IMG/VR virus record: IMGVR_UViG_2690316149_000014
Location: 1-17,767 of that record
Length of the DNA stretch: 17,767 nt
Source: a virus
Taxonomy: Duplodnaviria > Heunggongvirae > Uroviricota > Caudoviricetes
Strand: one strand, 5' to 3'
Below, piece after piece: positions 1,249 through 17,767 of this stretch. The notes beneath the pieces were generated by a model. That model was not told the origin of the DNA. It ran no database searches and was given only the letters and a program-made list of their open reading frames with translations. How positions within the stretch are numbered: position 1 is the first letter of the stretch; every line of letters starts with the position of its first letter. Made by a program: the position numbers and the translations under genes.

Positions 1249-1256
1249 ACGTAAAC

Positions 1257-2013: not shown

Positions 2014-2022
2014 ATCAGGCAA

Positions 2023-2642: not shown

Positions 2643-2714
2643 TTATCATCTCCATAAAACAAAACCCGCCGTAGCGAGTTCAGATAAAAGAAATCCCCGC
2701 GAGTGCGAGGATTG

Positions 2715-2804
2715 TTATTGTCTTTTCTTCGTGCATTTGTCGCACTTTCGGCACCATCCAGATAGGCACATCCGTCCGCAATTAACACATATAGGCCACA
2801 TCAT
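2715..2804 (-). CDS. Cys-rich micro-protein, 29 aa (MMWPICVNCGRMCLSGWCRKCDKCTKKRQ), zinc-ribbon-like
   Basis: Below the track cutoff. RBS AGAGGA; ATG overlaps the upstream stop as ATGA; four CxxC-type pairs. Confidence 0.35.
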   Translation of the reverse strand: MMWPICVNCGRMCLSGWCRKCDKCTKKRQ

Positions 2805-3945: not shown

Positions 3946-3955
3946 TTGTTATGCC

Positions 3956-4153
3956 TCAATACACGAAATCTGTTTTAAATTCATGGTTACATTCTGGACA
4001 GCATGTTTCGTAACCTTTTATTTCTTCACATGCCTGTTTAGCTCCAGAAAACTCCCAGAAATCTGGATCACAAAGCAGATCGAAATTGTGACCACATTTG
4101 GGACATTCGGTATCAAGTGACAGACTCCAGTAGGCAGTGATGTTTTTATCCAT
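3956..4153 (-). CDS. Small zinc-ribbon-like protein, 65 aa (two CPxCG-type pairs)
   Basis: Track ORF 3956..4186 overlaps the upstream gene; the internal ATG at 4153 has RBS AGGAG and sits 1 nt after the upstream TGA. Motifs CPKCGH…CCPECNH. Confidence 0.55.
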   Translation of the reverse strand: MDKNITAYWSLSLDTECPKCGHNFDLLCDPDFWEFSGAKQACEEIKGYETCCPECNHEFKTDFVY

Positions 4154-4154
4154 A

Positions 4155-4655
4155 TCACTCTCCTTTGATGCGAATGCCTGTTGCAATGCTGTTTATGATG
4201 CTGTCAGTGCATGGGGTAGAAAGCTGGGCATCTCCAGCAATTTTCATGACCTCAACATCTGCATATCGAATACCGAGGTGTATCAGACCGGCTATGCCTG
4301 ACTTAAGCCGAGCATTTTCCATAAATAGAACTTTTGCCCGCTGTTTTTCTGCTTCAAGCTCAACACGCAGCTTCCCTACCGTTAGCGCAATATCCTCGTT
4401 CTCCTGGTCGCGGCGTTTGATGTATTGCTGGTTTCTTTCCAGCTCATCCAGCAGCGCCCGAACTACATCAGCGGTTTTCTGGCACTGGTCAACAATGCTA
4501 ACGTCACAACCAGTATCGAAACCGTCCTCAGTTTCAAAGCGGAGCTCTACAGAGTCGCCGTCGATATCAGATGGTTCGAACCCGGCAATGTTTTCCAGAA
4601 TGCCGATTATGCTTTCTGCGCTATGACGTAATGCGCGTTTGTCGATGTTGCTCAT
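4155..4655 (-). CDS. Hypothetical phage protein, 166 aa, acidic N-terminus and coiled-coil centre
   Basis: RBS GGAGG 7 nt upstream; start overlaps the upstream stop as ATGA. Confidence 0.6.
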   Translation of the reverse strand: MSNIDKRALRHSAESIIGILENIAGFEPSDIDGDSVELRFETEDGFDTGCDVSIVDQCQKTADVVRALLDELERNQQYIKRRDQENEDIALTVGKLRVELEAEKQRAKVLFMENARLKSGIAGLIHLGIRYADVEVMKIAGDAQLSTPCTDSIINSIATGIRIKGE

Positions 4656-4933
4656 TGGGCGGCCTCCGGTATTTTTCTTGCGCTGAATTGAGGTACATGT
4701 TCCATTTCAACCGTGAATACACCTACGCTCTCACCGTCAATGAATAGCTCGATATCCAACGGCCAGTCAGATTCCAAGCCGTCATGATTGTCAAAATAAT
4801 CAAGGGAGGCATCCTGAGACAAGCATTCCAATTCCCACTCAGAAATGAGCTCATCGATGTGTCGAGGATCGAGAAAAAACGCATCCTCAGGAAACGTGCC
4901 TGCATCTCTAACTACGTACTGGATTACGCTCAT
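4652..4933 (-). CDS. Hypothetical acidic protein, 93 aa
   Basis: Track ORF 4652..4987 trimmed to the ATG at 4933, which has RBS AGGAGG and overlaps the upstream stop as ATGA. Confidence 0.55.
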   Translation of the reverse strand: MSVIQYVVRDAGTFPEDAFFLDPRHIDELISEWELECLSQDASLDYFDNHDGLESDWPLDIELFIDGESVGVFTVEMEHVPQFSARKIPEAAQ

Positions 4934-5373
4934 TGGTTGCCTCCTTTGCGAAGCTGGGCAGCAATACTTACGCATATCTCTGCGCATCTAATCAGCCCCG
5001 GAACGTTCTTGTTTGGCCCAACTTCACCATCAACAAAATCAATCATCGCGTTACGAGCCATCTCCACACCCTGCGCCCGCACTTCAGCCAGGAAGGCGTC
5101 GGTGGCTGGGGTTCCCTCTACCACTAACCCTACTGGAGCTAGATATTCTTTCATCCCCGCATTCTCCACAGCCAGCGCCGCGCACTTGGCCTCAAGGTTA
5201 TCAATCGTGATTCCAGCAGAACGACACTCACGCAACGCTGTTTCTAGTTTTGATTCAAGTTCACCGAACTTACGCACCAGATATTCAGCGTTTGTTTCGT
5301 TAACCTTTAAATCACTTGGGATGCATTTACCTTTCAGAAATCCATCCATCTCAATTAGTGACATTTGTTTCAT
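4930..5373 (-). CDS. Hypothetical phage early protein, ~147 aa
   Basis: Track ORF 4930..5391 starts at GTG with no RBS; the ATG at 5373 follows GGAG/GGGAAG. Start uncertain. Confidence 0.55.
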   Translation of the reverse strand: MKQMSLIEMDGFLKGKCIPSDLKVNETNAEYLVRKFGELESKLETALRECRSAGITIDNLEAKCAALAVENAGMKEYLAPVGLVVEGTPATDAFLAEVRAQGVEMARNAMIDFVDGEVGPNKNVPGLIRCAEICVSIAAQLRKGGNQ

Positions 5374-5668
5374 TTCTTCCCACTCCGCCACATCGCATTC
5401 AGATATTTGTTTTGATTCACTGATGCTTAAGAATTTCTCTTAAGCAATTCCTCTCTCGATGGCATTGGCTTTACGCGTTGGCGAATAATCATTTCTGCCG
5501 GAAGAATGCCGGGATTGTATGCAAGACCTCTCATGATTTACTCTCCACGAACTGGTCAATAGCCATGCTAAGTGACACACCTAAAGTCTCGATATGCTGC
5601 TGAATATCCTGTAGCGTCTGCGCCTGAGATAACAGGATTTCACGGTTGCATAACTCTTTAACCAGATG

Positions 5669-5821
5669 CTAAAACTTGCTGTAATAACCGATACGGCTTA
5701 GTGTTTCTTTCCCTGCATTCTCGCCTTCTTTGATAATTCCTCTTTCGCTAAGAATCAGATCGTGTTTTGTTCCGGTAATAACGTATTTTCCGAGGTCGAT
5801 GTTTAGCTTCATTGTTTTCAT
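5669..5821 (-). CDS. Hypothetical small protein, 50 aa
   Basis: Track ORF 5669..5971 overlaps the upstream gene for 140 nt; the internal ATG at 5821 has RBS GAGGAA and sits just after the upstream TGA. Confidence 0.4.
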   Translation of the reverse strand: MKTMKLNIDLGKYVITGTKHDLILSERGIIKEGENAGKETLSRIGYYSKF

Positions 5822-5831
5822 TGTTAATTCC

Positions 5832-6125
5832 TCAGTCATTACTGATAGCGCCATAGCGTGAGCGGTAATTACGCAGGCGCGGGTCGATTTCAGGGAAGTG
5901 GGTATATGTGGCTTTGCGGAATGGTCGGATTGATGTCTGGTAAATTCGCTCTCGTTCTTCTTTCTCTGCAAGCCATATGCAGTGGCGAAACTCCTTTTCC
6001 TCTTTCGTTTCCTGCGGTAGAGACATTATTCGATCGTAGTTTTTTCTGAATTTATCCAGCACCTCCGATACGGAATTGCCGGAACAGCGGCGCGGGTCAT
6101 CCGCACCATATAGAGGCGCTGGCAT
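5832..6125 (-). CDS. Hypothetical phage protein, 97 aa
   Basis: RBS AGGAGAA 5 nt before the ATG at 6125; operon position between the exonuclease and downstream accessory genes. Confidence 0.55.
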   Translation of the reverse strand: MPAPLYGADDPRRCSGNSVSEVLDKFRKNYDRIMSLPQETKEEKEFRHCIWLAEKEERERIYQTSIRPFRKATYTHFPEIDPRLRNYRSRYGAISND

Positions 6126-6141
6126 GGTTTTCTCCTGTTGA

Positions 6142-6690
6142 TTATTTAGCTAACTTTTTCCAGATCGCTGAAACGTATTTGGCTTGGTGGATGGCATCAT
6201 CAAGCGCGTTGTGGCGAGTTCCTTTGAATGGCATATCTCGCTTAGGATCGAATCCTATTACCTTCCCAAGTTCGACGATTGTTCTTACGTCGCGGTCATT
6301 CCACCACTGCCACGGAACTGGCTGCCCTGTCAGCGAATAACTGTTGCGGAGAATAACGCAGTCAAATGATGCTCCATTCCCCCAAACCTGAACGAGTTTG
6401 TGGTTGGCGTTCTTTATGATGAATTCAGATAACCATGAAAGAGCCGTTGAAAGCTCTTGAGTGTTGCTGGTTAGCGATTTTCTGGCTTCTTCACTCTGTT
6501 CCATCCACCATAAAATCGTTGAAGCGTCAGGACGCGCCCGATATCGCATTGATGACTCAAGCGAGATATTTACCGAGAACTCTTCTCCTGTTTCTCCGGT
6601 ATTCGGGTCAAAGAATACCGCCCCAATAGAAATAACTGGCGCATATGGCCCGTTGCCCATTGTTTCAAGGTCAACCATTAAGTGATTCAT
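6142..6690 (-). CDS. 3'-5' exonuclease, DnaQ-like DEDDh family, 182 aa
   Basis: Exo I motif MVDLETMG near the N-terminus and Exo III-like H…ALDDAIHQAKY near the C-terminus; RBS AAGGA. Confidence 0.8.
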   Translation of the reverse strand: MNHLMVDLETMGNGPYAPVISIGAVFFDPNTGETGEEFSVNISLESSMRYRARPDASTILWWMEQSEEARKSLTSNTQELSTALSWLSEFIIKNANHKLVQVWGNGASFDCVILRNSYSLTGQPVPWQWWNDRDVRTIVELGKVIGFDPKRDMPFKGTRHNALDDAIHQAKYVSAIWKKLAK

Positions 6691-6698
6691 GTAAGTCC

Positions 6699-7205
6699 TT
6701 AAATTGCGTGAATAGCGTGACGAGGGAAGGGGAGAGTTACTGGTGCAAAGGGTATATCGTCGTCAAAATCCATCGGAGGTTCGTTGTGTTGTGCTGGTGA
6801 TGATTGCTGCTGTGGTTTCTGTGATTGCCTGCTGGCTGCTTGTTGTTTGCTGTCGCCAATGCCGCCAAGCATTTGCATCACGCCATTAATTCCGACATGA
6901 ACCTCGGTTGTGTAACGGTCTTGCCCTGACTGGTCTTTCCACTTTCTGGTTCTCAGCATTCCCTCGAAATAAACCTGATCACCTTTTTTCACATACTGCC
7001 CCACGACCTCAGCCAGTTTCCCGGATACAGCAACACGATGCCATTCAGTCAATTCCTTTTGCTCGCCAGTATTTTTATCTCGCCATTGTTCTGACGTGGC
7101 TATTGTCAGGTTAGCGAACGCTGTTCCTGATGGTGAGTATCGAACTTCCGGGTCTTGTCCTACCCGACCAAGGATAATCACCTTATTTACGCCTCTGCTT
7201 GCCAT
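6699..7205 (-). CDS. ssb: Single-stranded DNA-binding protein (phage SSB), 168 aa
   Basis: N-terminal OB-fold signature ([23 protein letters not shown]…), Gln/Pro-rich linker and acidic C-terminal tail …MDFDDDIPF. Confidence 0.9.
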
Positions 7206-7913
7206 TTATGCCGCCTGTTTTAGTTCGTTAACTCTGATGTTCATTACCTGAACGCATTTAGCCTGCGCATCCTCATTGCCAGCCATTAATTGCCAGTCAT
7301 GCTGATAACGTTCTATGAGTTTTTTCTTGTCAGTTTCTGTTGATGCATAATCGCTGAAGTCTTTCAGGATTTGTTCGCAGTCAACCGATGGAGATTTCTG
7401 GTTGGTATTTTCTGGTGATGGTTTGTTATCTGATGCTGGGATTGCCCATCCCGGCAGCGATGGAGGGAGCCAGTAAAATCCTGTTCCATCTTTCAGTTTT
7501 GCCCTGTGCCATCCCTGCTTTTTATCGAGAGATGTTTGTGCGAAACCTTCCTCAAGGTTATACAGATACCGACCGATTCCCCATTGAACGGCAGCACGCT
7601 TCATTGCACCGGAACGACCACCTTTGACGGCTTCTACCTGCGTGTTTTCAGCAGCATCCCATTTGGTTACCCATTCGGAATCAATCTTGATTGATATGCC
7701 GCATTCAACTCCGCCGTTGTTGGGAATATCGCGGTATTCATTGCGCCATCCTGCTTTGCCGCAAACATCGTCCAGGCGTTTCATGATTGCCCTGTTCGTG
7801 ACATAAGCCAGCACCATAGCCCACACCTTTCCATCGCGTGTTTTACCGCTTTGCTGTATTCGCCATTCGATATCTTCAGGGCTGAATGGCTCATCGAATT
7901 TATTCAAATCCAT
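7206..7913 (-). CDS. Single-strand annealing protein, Rad52/22-like family, 235 aa
   Basis: Motif …GGRSGAMKRAAVQWGIGRYLY… recalled as typical of phage Rad52/22-type recombinases; RBS GAGGTGA; stop abuts the ssb ATG (TAAATG). Confidence 0.65.
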   Translation of the reverse strand: MDLNKFDEPFSPEDIEWRIQQSGKTRDGKVWAMVLAYVTNRAIMKRLDDVCGKAGWRNEYRDIPNNGGVECGISIKIDSEWVTKWDAAENTQVEAVKGGRSGAMKRAAVQWGIGRYLYNLEEGFAQTSLDKKQGWHRAKLKDGTGFYWLPPSLPGWAIPASDNKPSPENTNQKSPSVDCEQILKDFSDYASTETDKKKLIERYQHDWQLMAGNEDAQAKCVQVMNIRVNELKQAA

Positions 7914-8000
7914 AATTCACCTCAGAATGGACATGGCCCAAGGAAATAACGCTGATTTAATACTTCAGTCTTTGCCGCATTTAAAAATACGCGAACACCT

Positions 8001-8171
8001 TCACGATCTCCCTTCTGGCGATACATTAACGCCTGCTGCGTGTACATGCGTCTCTGTAACTTGCTCTCCTTCACTGTGGTTGCAAGTGACATGAATATCT
8101 CCTTCGTTACCGATTAATTCTTTCATCTGACGAATGAATTCTTCGTCTGACCAGTTATCTGTAAAACTCAT
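8001..8171 (-). CDS. Hypothetical small acidic protein, 56 aa
   Basis: Track ORF trimmed to the ATG at 8171, which overlaps the kil-like stop as ATGA. No family recognised. Confidence 0.4.
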   Translation of the reverse strand: MSFTDNWSDEEFIRQMKELIGNEGDIHVTCNHSEGEQVTETHVHAAGVNVSPEGRS

Positions 8172-8320
8172 TTCCTGCGATACCACGGAAGGTTGATAGC
8201 TGATTTCATCGCTTTATTTGCTTCAAGCCACATTTTCGAATCACCAATAAATCTGGCTATTACTGCTTTGTTCTGTGCAGCACGAAGCATCTGGTGATTG
8301 ATGGCTATTTCATTGCGCAT
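8168..8320 (-). CDS. kil: Kil-like small protein, 50 aa (MRNEIAINHQMLRAAQNKAVIARFIGDSKMWLEANKAMKSAINLPWYRRK)
   Basis: Below the track cutoff. Immediately downstream of and overlapping cIII, as kil is in lambda; FIGDxKM motif recalled from Kil proteins. Recollection only. Confidence 0.45.
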   Translation of the reverse strand: MRNEIAINHQMLRAAQNKAVIARFIGDSKMWLEANKAMKSAINLPWYRRK

Positions 8321-8436
8321 AATAAGACCTCAACTCTTTTCCATCCGTCACGTAATTTACGGGTGATTCGTTCAAGTAAAGATTCATTTAGTTGGAAGGC
8401 ACCCATGCGAGCGCCTCCCGCGATTGCGTAAATCAT
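8305..8436 (-). CDS. cIII: CIII-like protein (FtsH/HflB inhibitor), 43 aa (MIYAIAGGARMGAFQLNESLLERITRKLRDGWKRVEVLLCAMK)
   Basis: Below the track cutoff. RBS AAGGA; the core …ESLLERITRKLRDGWKR… matches the recalled central amphipathic helix of lambda CIII. Confidence 0.7.
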   Translation of the reverse strand: MIYAIAGGARMGAFQLNESLLERITRKLRDGWKRVEVLLCAMK

Positions 8437-8460
8437 GGGTGGTTCCTTATGTTGGTTTTA

Positions 8461-9429
8461 TTAGTAGGTTATTTTTGTTGCGAATACTTCGCCTTTTACG
8501 ATGGCTGTTATGATATTTTTAGCAACATCTTCTGATGCGCCAACCTTGATAAGGTCAGCAAGTATTTTGTTATTTACTTCTTTCCGGTGAGCTTTATCCT
8601 TTGCTCTACGCTCTTCTTCGTCCTTGATTCTTTTTTCTTCTGCTATTCTGGCTTGCTCTTTTGCTTCAGCCTCGCGACGGGTTCGTTCAGCCTCCTCCTG
8701 TGCTTTTCTGCGTTCTGCTTCAATTGCTGCCTGCTTTTCTCTTTCAGCTCGTTCTGCTGCCTCTTTTGCTTCGCGCTGTGCTCGTTGCTCGGCTTCAATG
8801 CGTTCACGCTCTGCACGTTCCGCTGCGGCCTTAGCTTCTGCTTCTCGCCTTGCTGCTGCTTCAATTTCGGCTTTTGCCTTTGCTTCGGCTTCTGCTCTGG
8901 CTTTCTCTTCAGCTTCTCTTTTTAATCGTTCTTCATGCTCTCGCTTTTCCTGCTCCGCTTTGAGTCTTGCCTCTTCTCTTTGGCGGTCAAATTCGCGATC
9001 CATCAAAATCGCTATTTCATGGTCAGACTCAATTTGCTTTGCGAGAGCTTCAGCTGCTGCCTTAGCTTCTTCTTCGGCTTTAATCCGCGCCTGTTCTTCC
9101 TCATAATCAGTAAGAGGCTGGCGCGCCTTGGCTTTCAGTTCATCAAGGCGATCACGCACTGTCTTGCGGTTGGCATCAATTAGCTTTGGAATTTCCTTAA
9201 GTTCAGCAACAAGGTCTTTGCCAATACCATCGAGATATGTTTTCGTCTGCGCAACTTTATACGCCAGAGAAGCGATCTCCTTTCTGCCCTTTGCCGTTGT
9301 GATATCAGGCACAAAGGACATAACTTCACGTTCAACCTTTTGAAGGATTTCTTCAATCTGGTCGGCAGACTGAAATACAGTCATTGCATTTGCTTTTTCA
9401 ATAACAACTAAATCTGTTACTTCACTCAT
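8461..9429 (-). CDS. Hypothetical phage protein, 322 aa, with long Glu/Ala/Lys/Arg-rich low-complexity coiled-coil centre
   Basis: Strong RBS GGAGGA; central ~150 aa are EAKR repeats, with matching GC-rich DNA repeats at 8600-9000. Confidence 0.65.
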   Translation of the reverse strand: MSEVTDLVVIEKANAMTVFQSADQIEEILQKVEREVMSFVPDITTAKGRKEIASLAYKVAQTKTYLDGIGKDLVAELKEIPKLIDANRKTVRDRLDELKAKARQPLTDYEEEQARIKAEEEAKAAAEALAKQIESDHEIAILMDREFDRQREEARLKAEQEKREHEERLKREAEEKARAEAEAKAKAEIEAAARREAEAKAAAERAERERIEAEQRAQREAKEAAERAEREKQAAIEAERRKAQEEAERTRREAEAKEQARIAEEKRIKDEEERRAKDKAHRKEVNNKILADLIKVGASEDVAKNIITAIVKGEVFATKITY

Positions 9430-9441
9430 ATATCCTCCATC

Positions 9442-9468
9442 AAAAAAATTGCCCTCACATTAGAGGGC
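9442..9468 (-). terminator. Intrinsic terminator in the leftward early operon (tL1-like): GCCCTC-loop-GAGGGC stem plus U-run
   Basis: Minus strand reads GCCCTCTAATGTGAGGGCAATTTTTTT. Lies between the 156-aa gene and the RBS of the 322-aa gene. Confidence 0.6.
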
Positions 9469-9530
9469 AAAGAAGATTTCCAATAATCAGAACAAGTCGG
9501 CTCCTGTTTAGTTACGAGCGACATTGCTCC

Positions 9531-9558
9531 GTGTATTCACTCGTTGGAATGAATACAC
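9531..9558. other. Perfect 9-bp inverted repeat GTGTATTCA-N10-TGAATACAC
   Basis: Seen directly; the arms contain operator-like half sites (GTATTC/GAATAC) in everted order; no U-run follows. Confidence 0.4.
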
Positions 9559-9572
9559 AGTGCTTATTCGTA

Positions 9573-10043
9573 CTAATAAAACACCCAGTTTTCTGTTTCT
9601 TGGTTGTGTCCAAAGTTATATTCAATATCTGGTGTTGATGTATCAATATTCTTCATCCCATCAACAAGAGTTGATACAACAGCCAAATCTTGTTTGATTC
9701 TCATTAAATGGTATTTCTTCCGGCGCAATAAACTCTCAATGGCAAGTTTCTTCGTTGGGAATGCAAAAGATCTTTCTGCATTTTTTGCTACTTTCTTAAT
9801 TGCATATCTATTTCTCCTTTGTTTCCATTCCTGTAACCACTGATTTGGTGCTGGTTTAAAATTAACAATCCAATGCGCAGGAACCAACCATGCATAATGC
9901 TCTGTCTGATGAAAAGCTATATATTGAAGTGCGAATATTTTTATCCCATCTTCTTCAACTGTCGCCTGGAATCTCCAGAAAACAGGCATTCCATCATGTT
10001 CAGTTTCTGATTCAGGAAAAGGTACGCTCCATGATTTTGTCAT
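9573..10043 (-). CDS. Hypothetical protein, 156 aa, in an AT-rich segment (moron-like)
   Basis: RBS GAGGTGAG; starts 8 nt after the N stop; local GC visibly lower than flanking genes; no recognisable motif. Confidence 0.65.
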   Translation of the reverse strand: MTKSWSVPFPESETEHDGMPVFWRFQATVEEDGIKIFALQYIAFHQTEHYAWLVPAHWIVNFKPAPNQWLQEWKQRRNRYAIKKVAKNAERSFAFPTKKLAIESLLRRKKYHLMRIKQDLAVVSTLVDGMKNIDTSTPDIEYNFGHNQETENWVFY

Positions 10044-10051
10044 ATCTCACC

Positions 10052-10351
10052 TCAAATAAGTGGTTTGCTGCCTAATTTCATTTTCTGGCGACCAACACAA
10101 GTCACACCCATTTCACTGCGTGGCTTGCGGTAGTAAATACGATTCTGTTTACTCTCTACTTCTTCTGCCTTCTTGCAGCGAAGGCTTCCGAGTGATGCTG
10201 CTTTATCTGCTCTGACGCAACCAGAGAGCTTTAGCGCAATTTTTCGCGCCAGTCGCTGCTCTTGCATTGCCTGTTCACGTTGAGCCTGTCTGCGTGCTCT
10301 GCGGCGATTTCTGGCGTTATCGTCAGCCAGATATGTAATGACTACTGTCAT
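10052..10351 (-). CDS. N: N-family transcription antiterminator, 99 aa, with arginine-rich motif
   Basis: Track ORF 10052..10423 trimmed to the ATG at 10351 (RBS GGAGG). N-terminal ARM …NARNRRRARRQAQREQ…; first gene downstream of pL/nutL; matching boxA/boxB sites on both sides of the immunity region. Confidence 0.65.
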   Translation of the reverse strand: MTVVITYLADDNARNRRRARRQAQREQAMQEQRLARKIALKLSGCVRADKAASLGSLRCKKAEEVESKQNRIYYRKPRSEMGVTCVGRQKMKLGSKPLI

Positions 10352-10391
10352 GTTGACCTCCGGGAAGGTACACATCCTTGTGTGTCGATGA

Positions 10392-10511
10392 TTATTTGTT
10401 TTTGCGTTCCCACATCCAGTCATCTACTTCAGACCAGATAGTGAAACCGAAGCAGATGGCGAATGTGGTAACTAAACCACCGAGAATTGGGTTGGTCATG
10501 ATGTCTAACAT
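10392..10511 (-). CDS. Possible small hydrophobic peptide, 39 aa, in the pL leader between nutL and N
   Basis: Below the track cutoff. RBS GAGGAA 6 nt before the ATG; one predicted TM helix. Could be a chance ORF. Confidence 0.25.
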   Translation of the reverse strand: MLDIMTNPILGGLVTTFAICFGFTIWSEVDDWMWERKNK

Positions 10512-10681
10512 TTTCTGTTCCTCAGATGATTAGCTTTGGTGGTGTGGTAGGTGGGAGACCCATTTCGACCCGCTTCGTCCGACTTCAATTCGGCAATAGT
10601 CCCGCAGGCCTCGCCGCTTTACGTGCGACATATTCCCGTCCATGAACCCTTCACCACACCCCAAAGCCAACTACTCTTTGG

Positions 10682-10724
10682 TTCCCGCATTTCGGCGGGA
10701 CAATCCCATCAATGTTAAAGAGCC
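10682..10724 (-). promoter_or_regulatory. nutL-like site: boxA (GGCTCTTTAACA) plus boxB hairpin (UCCCGC-CGAAAU-GCGGGA) in minus-strand transcript sense
   Basis: The boxB RNA is identical to the one at 12381-12398 on the opposite strand; boxA matches the CGCTCTTTA-type consensus. Confidence 0.6.
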
Positions 10725-10770
10725 TGCCAATCTTTTCCGTTTGGCTTCCAGCGTCCTGCTGATGGCTAAA

Positions 10771-10855
10771 GAATACTGTAGGTATTTTATTGTGTAAATA
10801 CCCAAGGTATTTATTTTTGATGAAATAATGATAAACAAATGAATACAAAGGATAT
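10771..10855. promoter_or_regulatory. OL operator cluster / pL region: three sites of form GAATAC-N5-GTATT
   Basis: Sites at ~10771-10786, 10797-10811 and a weaker one at ~10841-10855 share half sites with the OR operators. Confidence 0.55.
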
Positions 10856-10943
10856 TTATTTTTTCCGGTGTCTGCTTGTTCAGTGCTTTTTATGCGGGAT
10901 ATGTGAAGTGGATCCCGATAGCTATTGCTGCCGGGATTATGGG

Positions 10944-11312
10944 TTAGTCAGCGAAGGTTAAGACGAGAATTACCTTAATGATGTCTGCTACAACAGACAC
11001 GGCCATAGATAAACCAAAGACGATCCAAGCCATAGAGATGTCTTCACTACCATCGTATAGGGTTCCGTAATCACTGGTGTAAGGCGTAAATGTCGCGCCT
11101 TGATACAATAGGTATAAGCTTGATCCATAGAGGATAAATGCAGATATCCCTTGTATTGCTATGATCACTAGAATCATGAAACGAGCTGATCTATGCGCCC
11201 AAGCCTGGCTTATTTTTTCTGATAGAGATTTCGCAATAAAAGCATGCGCTAAGCCGTAAATTGTTGAGATTGCCAACATCCCCAAAAAGCTTGCTATAGC
11301 GGTTCCAACCAT
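10944..11312 (-). CDS. Small polytopic membrane protein, 122 aa, ~4 TM helices, in the rex position immediately downstream of cI
   Basis: RBS AAGGGGG; begins 19 nt after the cI stop on the same strand, upstream of OL/pL. No family recognised. Confidence 0.65.
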   Translation of the reverse strand: MVGTAIASFLGMLAISTIYGLAHAFIAKSLSEKISQAWAHRSARFMILVIIAIQGISAFILYGSSLYLLYQGATFTPYTSDYGTLYDGSEDISMAWIVFGLSMAVSVVADIIKVILVLTFAD

Positions 11313-11330
11313 AAGCGCCCCCTTGCGTGA

Positions 11331-12047
11331 TCAAACCAGTCTGAGTTTTGTCTCAATTGCAACGCCTATAATCTTGCAGTTTCCATTGATTGGCACGAGA
11401 GGCCATGCAGGATTAAGTCCCTTGAGGTATTTATTTCCGCCGTCGATTATCAGCTTCTTGAATGTTGCTTCGTTAGAGTCAGAAAGTTTTGCTATGACCA
11501 AGCTGCCGTTGATCGCCTCCCTTCCGGTATCGAAAAGAACGAATGTTCCCTCTGGAATGCTTAACCCAACCGGTGCCGTCATTGAATCACCTTCCACTTT
11601 AAGCCAGAACGCATTACCTTGAATATGCGCGTCAGACTCAAGCCAAACATCTATGTCTTTAATGGTGTATGGTTCGCATGCTTCACACCACGAGCCAGCC
11701 TGGATACTGCTTAACACCGGATACCTCTTTCCTGCTCTGTATTCCCCTGCATACCTTACGTTGGCATCGCTCTTAAGGCTTTCTGCCTGTTCTGCAACCT
11801 TGGCAGCAATTGACTGGCTAAAATCAGCAATTGAGACTTGCAACAATCGTGCAAAACCAGATGCAACCTCAACGTTTAGCGCGTTTCTGCCATTAAGATA
11901 ATGCCCTACCGCTCCTTGGGTGATACCCAGTTCATCAGCGATTGAGTATTGGGTTATTCCCAATTCTTTCTTTTTTGACTCATACAAAGCCTTAAGCCGC
12001 TTAGCGTCTTCGAGCTGTTCTGTCGTCAGTGATTTTTTATTTTCCAT
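11331..12047 (-). CDS. cI: CI-type prophage repressor: N-terminal XRE-family HTH plus C-terminal LexA/S24-like autocleavage domain, 238 aa
   Basis: HTH …QYSIADELGITQGAVGHYLNG…; C-terminal S24 signature …GDSM…/…KL…; no SD before the ATG (leaderless, as for lambda pRM); divergent from cro across an operator region. Confidence 0.9.
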   Translation of the reverse strand: MENKKSLTTEQLEDAKRLKALYESKKKELGITQYSIADELGITQGAVGHYLNGRNALNVEVASGFARLLQVSIADFSQSIAAKVAEQAESLKSDANVRYAGEYRAGKRYPVLSSIQAGSWCEACEPYTIKDIDVWLESDAHIQGNAFWLKVEGDSMTAPVGLSIPEGTFVLFDTGREAINGSLVIAKLSDSNEATFKKLIIDGGNKYLKGLNPAWPLVPINGNCKIIGVAIETKLRLV

Positions 12048-12082
12048 AGCTTAATTCTAATAGCTAAGGTACTTAAACTAAA

Positions 12083-12123
12083 AATACCCTGAGTATTGAT
12101 TGCTTTGAATACCTGTAGTATTC
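12083..12123. promoter_or_regulatory. OR operators with divergent pRM/pR promoters
   Basis: Two sites, AATACCCTGAGTATT (~12083-12097) and GAATACCTGTAGTATTC (~12107-12123), with centres ~25 bp apart. Candidate pR -35 TTGATT / -10 TATTCT; candidate pRM -10 TAGAAT placed for a leaderless cI start. Confidence 0.6.
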
Positions 12124-12153
12124 TTTGTTCATGGTTAATAACGGAGAGTGCAT

Positions 12154-12348
12154 ATGATTCGAATGACACTTGCCGATTACGCCAAAATCCATGGACAGGC
12201 TAAAGCAGCCAGTGACTTTGGTGTAATCCAGTGCGCTATCAGCAAGGCCATTCTGGCAGGCCGTAACATCATGGTTACGGTAAAGCCTGATGGCAGTGTG
12301 ATTGGAGAGGAAGTTCGTCCTTTCCCAAGCAACAAGAAAAACAAATAG
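12154..12348 (+). CDS. cro: Cro repressor, 64 aa from ATG 12154 (track ORF begins at GTG 12148)
   Basis: Recalled similarity to lambda Cro throughout; RBS GGAGAG upstream. Confidence 0.85.
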
Positions 12349-12354
12349 TAACAC

Positions 12355-12398
12355 CGCTCTTTAACAGTCATGGTCCTCATTCCCGCCGAAATGCGGGA
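12355..12398 (+). promoter_or_regulatory. nutR-like site: boxA (CGCTCTTTAACA) plus boxB hairpin (TCCCGC-CGAAAT-GCGGGA)
   Basis: Immediately downstream of the cro stop; boxB identical to the nutL copy in transcript sense. Confidence 0.6.
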
Positions 12399-12456
12399 AT
12401 ACAACGCGCATAAGTTGATGCGCATAACTTCTTATTAGTTAAGGAAATACTTACAT

Positions 12457-12735
12457 ATGCAACTTACAAGTACTCGCAAGAAAGCGAATGCAATTACAAG
12501 CAACATCCTGAATCGAATTGCTGTACGTGGTCAGCGAAAGGTTGCCGACGCGTTAGGGATTAATGAATCGCAAATTTCGCGATGGAAAGACAGCTTCATC
12601 CCAAAAATGGGAATGCTTCTGGCTGTTCTTGAATGGGGTGTTGAAGACGAGGAGTTGGCGGAACTGGCTAAGAAAGTAGCCAGAATGCTGACAAAAGAAA
12701 AAGCCCCGAAGAACGGCGAATTCTTCGAGGCCTGA
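12457..12735 (+). CDS. cII: CII transcriptional activator, 92 aa
   Basis: Recalled similarity to lambda CII (…SQISRWK…IPK..MLLAVLEWGV…); position right after cro/nutR. Confidence 0.85.
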   Translation: MQLTSTRKKANAITSNILNRIAVRGQRKVADALGINESQISRWKDSFIPKMGMLLAVLEWGVEDEELAELAKKVARMLTKEKAPKNGEFFEA

Positions 12736-12769
12736 TGTAGAAAGACTGGATCAATCCACAGGAGTAATT

Positions 12770-12931
12770 ATGACAAAACGTCGTAAGAAATACCAGGAAA
12801 AAGAAGAGATTCGACACCCTGATTCACCTGAGGGATTAGTGGTAGCCGCAGCAAATAACAGGGCGTTCGCAGAGCGCCTTGTTGGTGTTTACAGACTAGC
12901 CAAAGCAGGAGTGAAACATGGGCGTCGTTAA
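12770..12931 (+). CDS. Hypothetical small basic protein, 53 aa (MTKRRKKYQEKEEIRHPDSPEGL…)
   Basis: Below the track cutoff. RBS AGGAG 6 nt before the ATG; 3' end overlaps the initiator gene start by 14 nt. Confidence 0.4.
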   Translation: MTKRRKKYQEKEEIRHPDSPEGLVVAAANNRAFAERLVGVYRLAKAGVKHGRR

Positions 12932-13808
12932 GTTAGCTGATTACAGGCATAACCCTGTACAACATCAGGAGGCATCCAGTATGGGGTATGTCTCTATACA
13001 CCGCCAGTTTATGGACAGCAGGCTCTATAAGGACTCTCAGGCAGTACATCTTTGGCTTCACTTAATCCTCAAGGCTAATCACGAATCTACTGTCGTCAAT
13101 ACGGATATCGGTCCGATAACTGTTGAGCGCGGTCAGATGATAACTGGACGCCCGTCGCTGGTCAGAGAAACATTCATCCCCGACAACAAAGTTCGGAGCT
13201 TATTACGGACTTTTGAGTCGAAAGGTATGCTTAATATTTGCTCGATGGGGAAGAAATTTAGCCTGTTTACAATCGTTAAATATGACGATTTTCAGGCAAA
13301 AAATTGTCCAACGGTTGTCCAACAGTTGTCCAACGCAAACACCAGTAATGGTGCGGCTCTCAGCGGAGATTGTCCAACGGTTGTCCAACAGTTGTCCATA
13401 AACAATAATATAAATAATATCTCTAATACTGACGTATTAGAGAGTGCTACAGCAGACAAAAAGTCTGACAAGAAAAAACCTTCCGTCAGCTGTCAGGATG
13501 TTGTCGATGCTTACCACGAAATCCTTCCTGAAGCGCCAAGAATCCGCGCACTGAATGACAAGCGTAAAAACCAGATCCGAACGTTCTGGCGCAAAGCCGG
13601 AGTGATAACCCGCCAGCTTGACGGGCATGGGTTCACGATGCAGGACTGGAGAAATTATTTGAGCTACGTAGGCGAAAATTGCCGATGGATGTTCGAAGAA
13701 CGCCCAAACCATCAACGCGGAACCGTCTGGCACAAAAAGGGATTTGATTTCCTGCTTAACGACAATACCTACCTGAAAGTTCGTGAGGGTGAACACGATG
13801 ACCGATAA
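12918..13808 (+). CDS. Replication initiation protein (O-like; P22 gene 18-type), 296 aa, with origin iterons inside the coding sequence
   Basis: Position after cII and before a DnaB-type helicase; internal iterons and AT-rich tract; the tandem peptide repeat NCPTVVQQLSN is the translation of the iterons. Confidence 0.75.
   Translation: MGVVKLADYRHNPVQHQEASSMGYVSIHRQFMDSRLYKDSQAVHLWLHLILKANHESTVVNTDIGPITVERGQMITGRPSLVRETFIPDNKVRSLLRTFESKGMLNICSMGKKFSLFTIVKYDDFQAKNCPTVVQQLSNANTSNGAALSGDCPTVVQQLSINNNINNISNTDVLESATADKKSDKKKPSVSCQDVVDAYHEILPEAPRIRALNDKRKNQIRTFWRKAGVITRQLDGHGFTMQDWRNYLSYVGENCRWMFEERPNHQRGTVWHKKGFDFLLNDNTYLKVREGEHDDR
13304..13445. repeat. Replication origin: six TTGTCCAAC iterons in two triplets (13304-13334 and 13370-13400) followed by an AT-rich tract (13400-13445)
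   Basis: Seen directly; 11-bp periodicity within each triplet; the triplets are a ~36-bp direct repeat. Confidence 0.7.
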
Positions 13809-15234
13809 TTTTTATGCGCCGCCCCATAGCATCGAGGCAGAGCAGGCGGTGATTGGTGGATTGCTTCTGGATGATGACAGCAGTGAGCGCGTCCAGAAAG
13901 TTCTGGCGATGCTGAAGCCTGATTCATTTTACAGCCGACCACACAAAATCCTTTTCGAAGAGATAACCAGAATGCACCGGGAGCAAAAGCCAGTAGATGG
14001 CCTGACGCTTTTCGATGAACTGGAGCGTAAATCGTTAACGGCGTCTGTTGGCGGTTTTGCTTATATCGCTGAGATCGCAAAGAACACGCCAAGCGCAGCA
14101 AACATCGTTGCCTATGCAATGCAGGTTCGCGAAACCGCAATGGAACGCTACGCCATCAACCGCATGACTGAAGCGACGGAATTGCTCTATTCCCGCAACG
14201 GAATGACTGCAACGCAGAAGTACGAAGCTATTCAGGCGATTTTCACGCAACTGACAGACCATGCAAAAACCGGATCGCGTCGCGGACTTCGCTCATTTGG
14301 TGAGGTCATGGAAGACTGGGTTAGCGACCTTGAGAAGCGTTTTGACCCGTCAGGCGAACAACGAGGAATGAGCACAGGGATCCCATCGCTGGACAGGATG
14401 CTGTCACCGAAAGGTCTGGTGAAAGGCTCTTTGTTTGTCATTGGCGCTCGCCCTAAGATGGGGAAAACGACGCTATACAGCCAGATGGCAATCAACTGCG
14501 CAGTGCATGAGAAAAAGCCCGCTCTGATGTTCAGCCTTGAAATGCCAGGTGACCAGATACTGGAAAAACTGGTAGGGCAAAAGTCAGGTGTTAACCCCAA
14601 TATTTTTTACCTTCCGGCGACAAATGACGCTGATGACGGCTATCAGGGTGATTACGATGGTGACTTCAACAGGGCGATCGAAACAGCTAATCGCTTGAGT
14701 GAAATCGACATGCTTTACATCGACGACACGCCGGGATTATCTCTGGCTCAAATCGTCAGCGAAAGCCGTCGAATCAAGCGAGAAAAAGGATGTGTTGGCA
14801 TGATTCTGGTCGATTACCTGACACTAATGACCGCTGAGAAGGCCGATCGCAACGACCTTGCTTACGGCATGATCACCAAAGGACTGAAGAACCTTGCCAA
14901 AGAGCTTGATTGCGTTGTTGTGCTTCTGACGCAGCTTAACCGCGCACTGGAAAGCCGAACCAATAAACGCCCATTACCAAGTGACTCACGAGATACAGGG
15001 CAGATTGAACAGGATTGCGATTATTGGGTTGGGATCCATCGTGAAGGCGCTTTTGATGACAGTGTTCCACCTGGTGAAACCGAACTAATCCTTCGTCTCA
15101 ATCGTCATGGCAATACCGGCACGGTGTATTGCATTCAGGCAAATGGCGCTATTTATGACACAGACCAACAGTCTGCTGAAATGCGCCGACGTGAACGCGA
15201 GGAACCGCAGTCCAAGAAGAAAGGAGGATTCTGA
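13798..15234 (+). CDS. Replicative DNA helicase, DnaB family, 479 aa from ATG 13798
   Basis: DnaB N-terminal signature PHSIEAEQAVIGGLLLD, Walker A GARPKMGKT, Walker B-like ILVDYLTLM; RBS GAGGGTG. The track ORF starts 15 nt earlier at a non-ATG codon. Confidence 0.9.
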   Translation: MTDNFYAPPHSIEAEQAVIGGLLLDDDSSERVQKVLAMLKPDSFYSRPHKILFEEITRMHREQKPVDGLTLFDELERKSLTASVGGFAYIAEIAKNTPSAANIVAYAMQVRETAMERYAINRMTEATELLYSRNGMTATQKYEAIQAIFTQLTDHAKTGSRRGLRSFGEVMEDWVSDLEKRFDPSGEQRGMSTGIPSLDRMLSPKGLVKGSLFVIGARPKMGKTTLYSQMAINCAVHEKKPALMFSLEMPGDQILEKLVGQKSGVNPNIFYLPATNDADDGYQGDYDGDFNRAIETANRLSEIDMLYIDDTPGLSLAQIVSESRRIKREKGCVGMILVDYLTLMTAEKADRNDLAYGMITKGLKNLAKELDCVVVLLTQLNRALESRTNKRPLPSDSRDTGQIEQDCDYWVGIHREGAFDDSVPPGETELILRLNRHGNTGTVYCIQANGAIYDTDQQSAEMRRREREEPQSKKKGGF

Positions 15235-15309
15235 TGACCATCTACATCACTGAGCTTGTAACAGGCCTGCTGGTAATCGCAGGCCTTTTTATTTGGGGGA
15301 GGGTAAATC

Positions 15310-15516
15310 GTGGTTGAGTTTATGCTCGTCGCACTCAAATTCGTTGGCGTTGGATGGATTCTTCTGACGTTTTTTATTTTTCTGCATAGCTACATTCGCC
15401 TTGTGAATGACGGTAAAGATCCATGGTATACGTTGTTTGGCGCTGCATTTGTCTGGGTGATTATCGGTGTTATGCCTGTCGCTGTAGCAAAAATGGCGTG
15501 GCGTTTTGTGAGTTGA
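15310..15516 (+). CDS. Small membrane protein, 68 aa, two predicted TM helices
   Basis: GTG start with RBS GGAGGG; hydrophobic hairpin topology. Follows a 27-aa hydrophobic mini-ORF (15234..15317) coupled to the helicase stop. Confidence 0.5.
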   Translation: MVEFMLVALKFVGVGWILLTFFIFLHSYIRLVNDGKDPWYTLFGAAFVWVIIGVMPVAVAKMAWRFVS

Positions 15517-15533
15517 ACTGAGGGTAAGTATCG

Positions 15534-15800
15534 ATGGACGAATCAAGAAAGCAGTTTGAAGAATGGTTTGAAAATTACACCGGATGTGATCCTAAAAATA
15601 AAATATACGCCAATATGGTTGAGATGTATTGGCAAGCGTGGCAGGCATCGCGAGCAGCTATCGAGATTGAGTGTCCTGGAAAAAGAGAGCGTGAGGCATT
15701 TTCTACCGATTTCGAGGATGGGGTCACATTTGGTTATAACGACGCAATTAGTGAATGCGAAGGACGGATTCGCGCTGCTGGAGTCAAAGTGAAGGGGTGA
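15534..15800 (+). CDS. Hypothetical protein, 88 aa (paralogue A of the MDESRKQFEE family)
   Basis: Shares N-terminal MDESRKQFEE, central W.AWQASRAAIE and C-terminal IRAAG.K motifs with the 16258..16614 product. Confidence 0.65.
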   Translation: MDESRKQFEEWFENYTGCDPKNKIYANMVEMYWQAWQASRAAIEIECPGKREREAFSTDFEDGVTFGYNDAISECEGRIRAAGVKVKG

Positions 15801-15802
15801 GC

Positions 15803-15988
15803 ATGAGTCGACGAAGTAGCTTTTTGGGGTTTGTAATATTCCTGTTCTGCACTGGTTACATCGTAATCTGGTCAATTTCGAACATTGACCGTAGCGGGGA
15901 ATATCTCATTGTAATGTTCTTTCCTTTGTTTCTTGGGTGGTACGCCGCAAGGTTGCTGGAAGAATGGGGTTACAGGCATAAAAAATAA
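15803..15988 (+). CDS. Small membrane protein, 61 aa, two predicted TM helices
   Basis: Track ORF 15755..15988 trimmed to the ATG at 15803 (RBS GAAGGGG), 2 nt after the paralogue A stop. Confidence 0.45.
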   Translation: MSRRSSFLGFVIFLFCTGYIVIWSISNIDRSGEYLIVMFFPLFLGWYAARLLEEWGYRHKK

Positions 15989-16047
15989 AGGAGTGTTCAG
16001 TGAAGCAAACCCTTTTTTATTGGATTAAGAGCGAGTGGTAATTACCG

Positions 16048-16230
16048 ATGGTAAATGCATTTATTTGTAGTTTATTTCTTGTCGCGATTTTTCATGGATT
16101 CCTTCTGATGATGAGTTTTGTTCTCTGGAATAATGGATATCGCATATTGGGAGTAGGTTTTGTTTTACGGTTTTCAGTTGTCTGCGCGTTGCTACCGATA
16201 ATTATGGCGACTATCAAATATTATTGGTAA
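16048..16230 (+). CDS. Small membrane protein, 60 aa, two predicted TM helices, AT-rich
   Basis: Hydrophobic profile; weak RBS; preceded by a 13-codon mini-ORF that has a strong AAGGAG RBS. Confidence 0.4.
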   Translation: MVNAFICSLFLVAIFHGFLLMMSFVLWNNGYRILGVGFVLRFSVVCALLPIIMATIKYYW

Positions 16231-16257
16231 CCCAAAAAATCATCGATGGAGAGTGAT

Positions 16258-16614
16258 ATGGACGAATCAAGAAAGCAGTTTGAGGAATACGTTGCCAAAA
16301 AATTGAGATTACCATTCGAGATGATAACCGAGGCAAGAAATGGTGATAGGTACTTCGCATTTTCAAGCATGGATATTCGTCACTCCTTAAATGAGTGGTG
16401 GACTTTATGGCAGGCATCGCGAGCAGCTATTGAACTGGATATCGACTGGCCAGAATCGAATGACGACTTTTGGAAAGATGGTGAAGAAGGTGCTTATGCG
16501 ATGGGTTATGAGGATGGGCGTGACAAAACGGTAATTGCAGTAATGAAAGCTATCAGAGCCGCTGGAATTAAAGAGAAGAATTTCGATGAAGCAAACAATC
16601 TTCCTCCGAAGTAA
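16258..16614 (+). CDS. Hypothetical protein, 118 aa (paralogue B of the MDESRKQFEE family)
   Basis: Track ORF 16246..16614 trimmed to the ATG at 16258 (RBS GGAGAG); shares the three paralogue A motifs. Confidence 0.65.
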   Translation: MDESRKQFEEYVAKKLRLPFEMITEARNGDRYFAFSSMDIRHSLNEWWTLWQASRAAIELDIDWPESNDDFWKDGEEGAYAMGYEDGRDKTVIAVMKAIRAAGIKEKNFDEANNLPPK

Positions 16615-16996
16615 GCAACAACAGCAAGCCGCAATAAATGCCATCCTCGCAACACCACTCGATAAAGACAAGCCAGTCACCATCCGCATTACTGACTACA
16701 AGCGCAACCTTGACCAGAACGCAAAATTTCACGCGATGCTGGCGGATATCGCTCGTCAGGTTCAATGGTGCGGCAAATGGTTAAAACCGGAACAATGGAA
16801 GGTTTTGTTGATCAGCGGTCATGCAGTGGCAACAAAACAGGAAGCTGATGTTTTGCCCGGGCTTGAAGGCGAATACGTCAACATTCGCGAAAGTAGCGCG
16901 CAGATGAGTGTGAAGCGTATGGCAAGTCTGATTGAGTACACGACAGCATGGGCTATTGGTCAGGGTGTCAGATTTACCGACAGGAGGTACGAATGA
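16586..16996 (+). CDS. ninB: NinB (Orf-family recombination mediator), 136 aa
   Basis: Recalled similarity to lambda NinB (…[25 protein letters not shown]…); first gene of a ninB-ninE-ninF run. Confidence 0.8.
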
Positions 16997-17169
16997 GACG
17001 ACAGCGACGAAGTTTCACCGACATCATCTGCGAAAACTGCAAATACCTTCCAACGAAACGCTCCAGAAATAAACGCAAGCCAATCCCAAAAGAATCTGAC
17101 GTAAAAACCTTCAACTACACGGCTCACCTGTGGGATATCCGGTGGCTAAGACATCGTGCGAGGAAATGA
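16993..17169 (+). CDS. ninE: NinE-like protein, 58 aa
   Basis: Track ORF 16948..17169 trimmed to the ATG at 16993 (RBS AGGAGG; ATGA overlap with the ninB stop); recalled NinE-like sequence [30 protein letters not shown]…. Confidence 0.7.
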
Positions 17170-17513
17170 CAATGGATTATTCACAGTTAAGTGATTTTGA
17201 AATTAACAGAATGGTAGGAGACATAATTTTTAAGGGCCTTTGGGCATGTAAGCCGGAAACGTCAGGGAATAATACCAACAAATGGTATTACGGAAACGCT
17301 GATACAACTTTTGAGCCATTAAACCATTTACCTGACTACTGCAATGATCCGAGTGCCTCATGGCCGATTATTGAGAAACACAGGATTTCTATCTTAGACC
17401 AGTTAACTGAATGGTGTGTGGATGCAAAAGGCGTAAGCCCAATATTTGATACCAGACCTCTCCGCGCCGCCATGATTGTCTTTCTCATGATGCAGGACGC
17501 CAATAATGCTTAG
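17166..17513 (+). CDS. Hypothetical nin-region protein, 115 aa, in the ninX position between ninE and ninF
   Basis: Track ORF 17130..17513 trimmed to the ATG at 17166 (RBS GAGGAA; ATGA overlap with the ninE stop). Assigned by position only. Confidence 0.5.
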
Positions 17514-17682
17514 CCCATCCCAATCCCTCCAATACCAGAAAGAAAGCGTCGAGCGGGCTTTAACGTGCGCTAACTGCGGCCAGAAGCTGTATATGCTGGA
17601 AGTTCACGTGTGTGAGCACTGCTGCGCAGAACTGATGAGCGATCCGAATAGCTCAATGTACGAGGAAGAAGACGATGGCTAA
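17506..17682 (+). CDS. ninF: NinF-like protein, 58 aa (…[41 protein letters not shown])
   Basis: Below the track cutoff. Recalled near-identity to the lambda NinF C-terminal region; start overlaps the upstream stop. Confidence 0.7.
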
Positions 17683-17767
17683 ACCAGCGCGAAGACGATG
17701 TAACCGTAAAAGAGAAGATTTAACTGTTAAAAGGATATTTGAGTTACTAAGTTTCGATAAATCTACC
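17675..17767 (+). CDS. NinG-like protein, N-terminal fragment ([14 protein letters not shown]…), truncated by the window end
   Basis: ATG overlaps the ninF stop; the first residues MAKPARR match the recalled lambda NinG N-terminus, then diverge. Only 31 codons visible. Confidence 0.4.
   Translation, partial: MAKPARRRCNRKREDLTVKRIFELLSFDKST

Follow-up and report, generated by a model that had tools for sequence, protein, structure and literature searches.

A candidate theta replication origin with phased 11-bp iterons inside the initiator gene of a mosaic lambdoid phage or prophage of E. coli

Among the experimentally studied systems that we compared, the closest to the locus described here is G38P, the 'replisome organizer' of Bacillus phage SPP1, together with its origin, oriL. 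Experiments have shown G38P to bind the direct repeats of oriL, an origin situated within gene 38 with an AT-rich unwinding element beside it; in vitro, replication is driven by a 356-bp fragment of oriL (PMC5737612, PMC6316719). In lambda and P22 the origin likewise sits in the initiator gene, at the linker between an origin-binding N-terminal domain and a partner-binding C-terminal domain. Repeats are also found within the rep gene of RepA_N plasmid initiators of Gram-positives, such as RepA of the staphylococcal plasmids pSK41 and pTZ2162. Here we examine a stretch of 17,767 nucleotides from a member of the Caudoviricetes (IMG/VR record IMGVR_UViG_2690316149_000014, positions 1 to 17,767; hereafter the window), which comes from a mosaic lambdoid phage or prophage of E. 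coli and represents its early region. The open reading frame (ORF) at 12918..13808 on the plus strand encodes a replication initiator of 296 aa, and we consider it very probable (about 85%) that positions 13304-13443, in the linker-coding part of this gene, are the theta origin that it serves. With the same confidence we divide this origin into three parts: six iterons of 11 bp each, grouped as two triplets in phase; an AT-rich stretch of 22 bp at which the DNA would unwind; and a palindrome of 24 bp.

An origin at this place is already known as a putative one, having been published for phage L and annotated in Sf6, HK620 and VT2-Sakai. The initiator gene is 98-99% identical to that for 'replication protein O' of mEpX2, HK633, HK542, HK106, HK75, IME10 and Sf6 (98.5% over 891 nt for gene 43 of Sf6) and 84% identical to gene 18 of the Salmonella phages L, ST64T, ST160 and SE1. 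The Sf6 record (AF547987) has a rep_origin at 28385-28480, equivalent to window positions 13303-13398, with the label 'putative; repeat region reminiscent of the phage lambda origin; similar to phage HK620'. The phage L record carries a 'putative origin of replication' at the equivalent place, and in the VT2-Sakai record one triplet is labelled 'ori iteron 1' and the other 'ori iteron 2'. As the likely origin, the phage L paper gives six 11-bp repeats (TGTCCAACGGA, six times; PMC8022706). It cites phage genetics that map this origin to the 18-12 region and, from Hilliker (1981), evidence that the replication region can be exchanged as a unit, though not one gene at a time (PMC8022706). The putative origins of L/ST64T, Sf6, HK620 and HK022 resemble that of the window in lying within the gene and in combining an 11-bp repeat of the TGTCCAACGGA type, a 3+3 arrangement, an AT tract and a palindrome; between Sf6/L-type origins and the window there are essentially no differences, the bases between the cores being the ones that vary.

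The original prediction had described six copies of a repeat at 11-bp spacing, in two triplets about 66 bp apart. The spacing is as described, with five of the copies exact and one degenerate: TTGTCCAAC starts at 13304, 13315, 13326, 13370 and 13381, and the sixth copy, TTGTCCATA at 13392, matches it at 7/9 positions. Start-to-start distances are 11, 11, 44, 11 and 11 bp, and the whole block spans 13304-13402. The first cluster (13304..13336, plus strand) comprises three 11-bp direct repeats, TTGTCCAACgg, TTGTCCAACag and TTGTCCAACgc, and the second (13370..13402, plus strand) comprises TTGTCCAACgg, TTGTCCAACag and TTGTCCATAaa, the degenerate last copy continuing into the AT tract. Between them lies a spacer of unconstrained sequence (13337..13369, plus strand), whose 33 bp (3 x 11) keep the clusters in phase; as the triplet starts are 66 bp, or 6 x 11, apart, the two triplets are in phase with each other. 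Tandem Repeats Finder (TRF) returned two period-11 arrays here, at 13304-13335 and 13370-13398.

Chance does not readily produce such a block. The 8-mer core TGTCCAAC has no further occurrence on either strand of the 17,767-bp window, and its five copies within 100 bp compare with a maximum of 2 (294/300) or 3 (6/300) in dinucleotide-preserving shuffles. TGTCCA is invariant in 18/18 repeat copies of the window, Sf6 and L taken together. A dyad symmetry inside the repeat (GTTG-tc-CAAC) was considered and dropped because it is not conserved, phage L having GATG. A promoter scan gave minus-strand matches (9/12) to the pattern TGGACA-N18-GACAAT within each triplet, at 13303-13332 and 13369-13398, and one promoter-like match on the plus strand at 13381-13409; these matches are probably by-products of the repeat sequence.

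Right after the last repeat copy stands an AT-rich tract of 22 bp (13398..13419), ATAAACAATAATATAAATAATA, presumed to be the DNA unwinding element. Such a tract was part of the original prediction, which had also placed it and the repeats wholly inside the ORF and had proposed a duplex-stability calculation; the tract and its place in the ORF were both confirmed. GC content over 13400-13439 is 17.5%. In a nearest-neighbour calculation no 25-mer of the window is less stable than 13404-13428 and no 40-mer less stable than 13398-13437, and the region ranks fourth in the window at the 60-bp scale. The third origin element, at 13420..13443, which the original prediction did not mention, is a perfect palindrome, TCTCTAATAC tgac GTATTAGAGA, with 10-nt arms and a 4-nt centre.

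Each of the family loci (15/15) has an inverted repeat behind the AT tract, in seven sequence variants with the arms TCTCTAATAC, CTCTCTTAC, TCTCTTCTAC, ACTTACTACC, ATCTAATAC, TATTAAATAC and, in Orisa03, GAAGAAG. The Orisa03 form, with 7-nt arms and an 8-nt centre, is the least certain of them; in every other variant the centre is T(G/A)A(C/A). Across eight distinct sequences 97.5% of cells pair, compared with 27-46% in slid-register controls, and 8/10 pairs have changed on both sides while none shows a one-sided (G-T) change; for these figures the register was picked by searching for palindromes, and the alignment was gapless with the AT tract as anchor. The peptide encoded by the palindrome is not conserved (ISNTDVLES, ISSTDVEES, LLPNGSKYV). 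The element is maintained through compensatory changes and is the counterpart of the lambda ori palindrome, and its type moves with the right-hand (C-domain) module across loci.

Several comparisons place the constraint on this block at the level of DNA, and all the computational tests able to tell an origin from a coding repeat spoke for an origin. Since 11 is not divisible by 3, successive copies within a triplet begin in codon phases 3, 2 and 1 and specify different residues, and only the full 33 bp of a triplet recur in the peptide. The origin block encodes NCPTVVQQLSN ANTSNGAALSG DCPTVVQQLSI NNNINNISNTDVLES, so the peptide repeat reported by the original prediction is present but not tandem, its two copies lying 22 residues apart and sharing only CPTVVQQLS. 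Peptide selection cannot account for 11-bp repeats that are read in three frames. Variation was assessed in 84 genes of this repeat type (73 unique, all of 891 nt and compared without gaps), drawn from a viral-contig scan that returned only loci 98-100% identical and so informative on variation, not diversity. Among these genes, 2/48 positions are variable in the repeat cores of both clusters, as against 7/18 between the cores (Fisher p 0.001) and 225/843, about 27%, in the rest of the gene (p 1e-4). The inter-cluster spacer is variable at 19/33 positions, and the AT tract plus palindrome (13398-13443) at 1/46 (Fisher p 3e-5). Third codon positions are variable at 9/47 in the origin block and at 132/249 in the two folded domains (p 2e-5).

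Repeats are present in the 15 loci compared, the original prediction having named their absence from relatives as evidence against an origin. Linker peptides differ in these relatives (VPADYQQIT in VT2-Sakai, VPTECQQSA in a Klebsiella phage, CPADVQPMS in Chronis); despite this the DNA plan of 3 x 11 + 33 + 3 x 11 bp is retained at the same position of the gene. Repeat number varies in closer relatives through the in-frame loss or gain of a 66-bp unit of cluster plus spacer: a 274-aa initiator has three repeats (L100, 1501-2325) and one of 318 aa has nine (L099, 1501-2457), the window having six in its 296 aa. A fourth, of 292 aa, has five repeats (L101, 317-1195); in this single assembled contig, deletions of 1 nt and 11 nt shift the reading frame of the linker segment lying between them, and the repeats are kept. 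At the three-repeat locus an IS4-family transposase takes the place expected of cI and cro; the locus may be a defective prophage, so we do not claim that three repeats suffice.

The repeat core changes together with the N-terminal domain of the initiator. We compared the window with 15 loci over the N-domain (aa 20-128), the C-domain (aa 177-296) and the repeat core. Core TGTCCAAC is found in Sf6 (N-domain 99% and C-domain 100% identical), Edwardsiella L013 (98% and 94%), Citrobacter L016 (87% and 46%), L014 (86% and 85%), L015 (83% and 55%), Cronobacter phage ENT47670 (82% and 53%), Dryocola L018 (76%, C-domain unrelated) and phage L (72% and 90%). Other cores are found in VT2-Sakai (49% and 99%) and L017 (48% and 98%), both with TTACCAGCA; in Klebsiella phage ST11-VIM1phi8.1 (44% and 56%), with TGCCAAC; in Chronis (45% and 45%), with TGTCCAGCC; in Erwinia phage EhrS_59 (45%, C-domain unrelated), with TGCCAAC or TGCCATC; and in Pseudomonas phage Orisa03 (23% and 27%), with AACCAGCA. 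Loci with an N-domain at least 72% identical to that of the window therefore have core TGTCCAAC, even where the C-domain is 46% identical or unrelated, and those with an N-domain at most 49% identical have another core (TTACCAGCA, TGCCAAC, TGTCCAGCC or AACCAGCA), even where the C-domain is 99% identical, as in VT2-Sakai. The core tracks the N-domain independently of the C-domain, as would be expected of repeats that are read by the N-domain.

VT2-Sakai, whose right half is that of the window (99%) but whose N-domain and core TTACCAGCA are of another kind, also locates the boundary between the halves. Sliding identity to it (L003) is 39-82% through bins 13380-13412 and 97-100% from 13413 rightward, and identity to L016, L018, L004 and L015 drops at the same place in the AT tract. 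These profiles place the mosaic recombination joint within the AT tract, at about 13400-13413, between a left module of N-domain plus repeats and a right module of palindrome, C-domain and helicase. In the natural chimera of Erwinia phage EhrS_59 (L008, 1138-2789) the initiator has an N-domain of the window type and 11-bp repeats with 66-bp spacing, joined to the C-domain of lambda O (70% identity, E 6e-63), and a lambda-P gene lies downstream. A ParB-like gene is situated immediately upstream of this initiator. The N-domain with its repeats and the C-domain with its partner are thus two independent modules, of which all four combinations were found; this independence backs the proposal, drawn from gene order and domain swaps, that the C-domain of the window initiator recruits the helicase encoded downstream. 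Among five metagenomic homologues with N-domains 25-40% identical, the next gene encodes a DnaB-type helicase in 5/5, and 4/5 have their own phased 11-bp arrays 320-380 nt into the gene, of the GGCCAACAAAC, AACAAACGGAC, AAATGAACAGC and CACCAGCAAAT types.

The initiator itself matches PHROG 345, 'replication initiation O-like' (E 1e-85). It consists of an N-terminal winged-helix domain (12975..13301, plus strand; aa ~20-128), presumed to bind the repeats, a linker encoded by the origin, and a C-terminal domain (13485..13805, plus strand; aa ~190-296; PHROG 24933), presumed to recruit the helicase. In AlphaFold2 (AF2) modelling the C-domain is confidently folded, with a predicted local distance difference test (pLDDT) score of 70-93 for aa 190-290, and the linker (aa 128-188) scores 25-31. 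In this full-length model, built on a shallow alignment, the N-domain stayed below pLDDT 50 and was unusable, and the modelling was repeated with 63 diverse homologues.

The N-domain is a winged helix related to that of SPP1 G38P, with which it shares 28% identity over 111 aa by BLASTP (pairwise E 6e-13); tblastn in a phage collection recovered the same link at E 7e-6. By sequence comparison the initiator belongs outside the lambda O family. The Pfam family Phage_rep_O (PF04492) did not match the window protein even at E<=1 and matched 0/63 of the diverse relatives, the positive controls lambda O and P22 gp18 scoring 5.7e-36 and 6.9e-38, and BLASTP found no similarity between the initiator and lambda O. 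P22 gp18, our first expectation for the closest relative, was set aside because P22 has a lambda-type N-domain and lambda-type repeats; the C-domain of the window initiator and the C-terminus of gp18 do show a weak resemblance (25% identity, E 1e-4). PF09681 (Phage_rep_org_N) does not match the window protein and matches 22/63 relatives at E<=0.01 (best E 5e-6), and several of the 63 match winged-helix families; the two PF09681 scores listed fall under Pfam's cut-off, which suggests a distant sister group of that family and not a member. PF09524 (Phg_2220_C) matches SPP1 G38P at 2e-20 and has no match in the window protein. In Pfam and NCBIfam together the sole match of the initiator was DUF7376, below threshold, and a profile search of Protein Data Bank (PDB) sequences with the initiator returned noise only (E>0.4).

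The likeness to SPP1 extends to the layout of the origin. The two share a homologous N-domain, an origin placed in the gene after the part encoding that domain, a period-11 array followed by an A/T-rich element, and a DnaB-family helicase encoded downstream. In the SPP1 sequence (L009, 1557-1646) a period-11 array of 4.6 copies lies just past the N-domain coding part and is followed by a period-9 A-rich array. The same succession of period 11 and then 9 was observed in a metagenomic homologue (L104, 1830-1919). SPP1 differs from the window in having a separate loader, G39P, between initiator and helicase, a C-domain of the Phg_2220_C type and one array of about 4.6 copies instead of two triplets, and the identity is only 28%; a search for a short palindrome after the SPP1 AT tract found none.

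The original prediction had likened the locus to lambdoid O-type origins, an analogy that holds for the layout and not for the family. Lambda and P22 share with the window the position of the origin between the two initiator domains and the place in the early right operon after cII. In lambda ori, as here, repeats are followed by an AT/A-rich tract and then by a palindrome with a 4-nt centre, that of lambda (12+4+12; GTCAGAGAATTC tggc GAATCCTCTGAC) standing right after the A-rich tract. P22 gp18 also shares a DnaB-type helicase as partner, whereas lambda uses the P loader and host DnaB. Both phages differ from the window in their Phage_rep_O N-domain and in their repeats, which are four sites of ~18-20 bp with internal dyad symmetry at 20-24-bp spacing, in contrast to the 11-mers of the window.

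On these grounds we propose the following sequence of events at the origin. Winged-helix N-domains would line up head to tail, each bound to a TGTCCAAC core, with one core in every turn of the helix, and since 66 is 6 x 11 both triplets would lie on one face of the DNA. The resulting nucleoprotein array would strain the DNA and open the neighbouring AT tract. The C-domain would then bring in the phage's own DnaB-type helicase, encoded just downstream, and the origin would fire. The lack of an adjacent lambda-P-type loader gene agrees with a module of the P22 18/12 type, unlike lambda O/P. The palindrome may mark the right edge of the melted region or aid loading. Because the origin lies inside the gene, the recognition domain and its sites would stay together through the frequent recombination at the AT-tract joint.

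A number of points weigh against this interpretation. The G38P homology is limited to one domain at 28% identity, and none of the curated origin-binding families in Pfam or NCBIfam takes in the window initiator. A fold search of the PDB with the C-domain gave no match below E 0.9, so helicase recruitment is argued from gene order and domain swaps. The co-variation of core and N-domain is partly confounded by their physical adjacency on the DNA, and the palindrome, when read with the T-rich strand opposite the AT tract, is also compatible with the pattern of a weak terminator on the minus strand. A 2008 paper described the ST64T replication protein, 82% identical to its Sf6 homologue, as 'unstudied' (PMC2629481), and our literature search found no binding, footprinting, origin-plasmid or initiation-mapping data on this origin type. 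Searches on the HK022, VT2-Sa and Sf6 origins likewise found no experiments, and a search with the repeat string returned primer sequences only.

We weighed four other explanations of the block. That the repeats merely reflect a duplicated low-complexity linker (CPTVVQQLS twice), with no function in the DNA, would suit the very low predicted order of aa 128-188 and the in-frame coming and going of 66-bp units among proteins of 274, 296 and 318 aa. It is nevertheless extremely unlikely, as an 11-bp period in three frames is not expected from peptide selection, third codon positions are more conserved in the origin block than in the folded domains, relatives have replaced the peptide wholesale and kept the DNA plan, and one of them, a single contig, reads part of the linker in another frame with the repeats in place. 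We also regard as unlikely a reading of the palindrome and AT tract as a minus-strand intrinsic terminator for leftward transcription, instead of or besides an origin role. A terminator scan did flag 13443-13420 on the minus strand (10 pairs, 3 G-C, tail TATTATTTAT), the phage L record has a minus-strand 'terminator' there, and the stem is preserved by compensatory changes. Yet most variants have a weak, AT-rich stem, and a leftward promoter or transcript is neither known nor evident downstream; the changes in its pairs are strictly Watson-Crick with no G-T intermediates, which suits a DNA dyad no less than an RNA stem. Moreover, the element always lies directly after the repeats, like the lambda ori palindrome, and a terminator would leave the repeats unexplained.

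Initiator sites could instead serve mainly for control, as an autoregulatory roadblock or through origin pairing in copy control, with the true start of replication elsewhere. The repeats of iteron plasmids serve initiation and control alike. SPP1 has a second G38P-bound site, oriR, for which fork stalling was proposed (PMC6316719). Against a control role, the 17.8-kb window, which covers only part of the genome, holds no second cluster of cores, the adjoining and strongly conserved AT tract of least stability looks like an unwinding element, and phage genetics map the origin of phage L to the 18-12 region; we consider this explanation very unlikely. A cluster of host DnaA boxes has a practically negligible probability and was rejected. 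TTGTCCAAC does match TTATCCACA at 6/9 positions, but a scan for TTWTNCACA with at most one mismatch gave among the repeats only a chance-level minus-strand hit at 13393-13401, and the window as a whole has fewer matches (27) than expected from shuffles (39). The core also varies with the phage N-domain in relatives of the same hosts, as a host-factor site would not.

Within the preferred reading of the block as a phage origin, we tentatively suggest that two exchangeable halves meet at the AT tract: a left one, the N-domain with its 11-bp repeats, which would set recognition, and a right one of palindrome, C-domain and helicase. The palindrome would then be the helicase-loading element of a phage DnaB system that seems to lack a separate loader. 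As a joint and equally speculative part of this suggestion, the palindrome might form a hairpin or cruciform after melting, or be recognised as a dyad by the C-domain or helicase, and the head-to-tail winged-helix arrays might open DNA more in the manner of DnaD/RepA_N scaffolds than of the lambda O-some.

The labels 'replication protein O' in the databases mask an origin-binding domain that is G38P-like and not of the lambda O type, and it is this domain that makes SPP1 oriL the closest experimental model found. What may go beyond prior annotation is the natural 2x2 swap, in which the core goes with the N-domain and the partner with the C-domain, the G38P link with quantified constraint and co-variation, the joint in the AT tract, the compensatory conservation of the palindrome, and the repeat numbers of 3, 5, 6 and 9. 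From these points, replication specificity and incompatibility among lambdoid and Stx prophages can be predicted by sequence alone, and they define a set of mutants suited to the study of DnaB helicase loading in a system with no adjacent loader gene.

The gene order around the initiator is in accord with the early region of a lambdoid phage. Individual phage records cover at most 50% of the window each. Upstream lie an S24-peptidase repressor (11331-12047, minus strand), a lambda-type Cro (12148-12348, plus strand) and CII (12457-12735, plus strand). Downstream, a DnaB-type replicative helicase of 478 aa is encoded at 13798..15234 on the plus strand (Pfam DnaB 3e-31, DnaB_C 3e-60); its start was taken as the ATG at 13798, and not the GTG at 13783 of the ORF list, because homologues have 478 aa. 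This ATG precedes the initiator stop codon (13806-13808), and the resulting 11-nt overlap suggests translational coupling. There is no gene between initiator and helicase, hence no G39P-type loader at that place, and no lambda-P-type loader gene adjoins the initiator; the Sf6 record has no P-type gene between the helicase and ninA.

A small conserved ORF of 53 aa at 12770..12931 (plus strand), of the P22 orf48/HK97 gp53 type and belonging to the function-unassigned PHROG 1331 (E 1e-37), overlaps the initiator start by 14 nt at its 3' end and is annotated at the same position in Sf6, P22, VT2-Sakai and L. A similar small ORF stands ahead of the initiator in most of the enterobacterial relatives examined, regardless of initiator specificity, though not in Erwinia phage EhrS_59. 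Within the 3' end of cII there is a strong terminator-like hairpin on the minus strand (12701-12733; 14 pairs, 6 G-C, T-rich tail), at the position of the terminator annotated for the oop antisense RNA in P22, and it likely belongs to an oop-like RNA.

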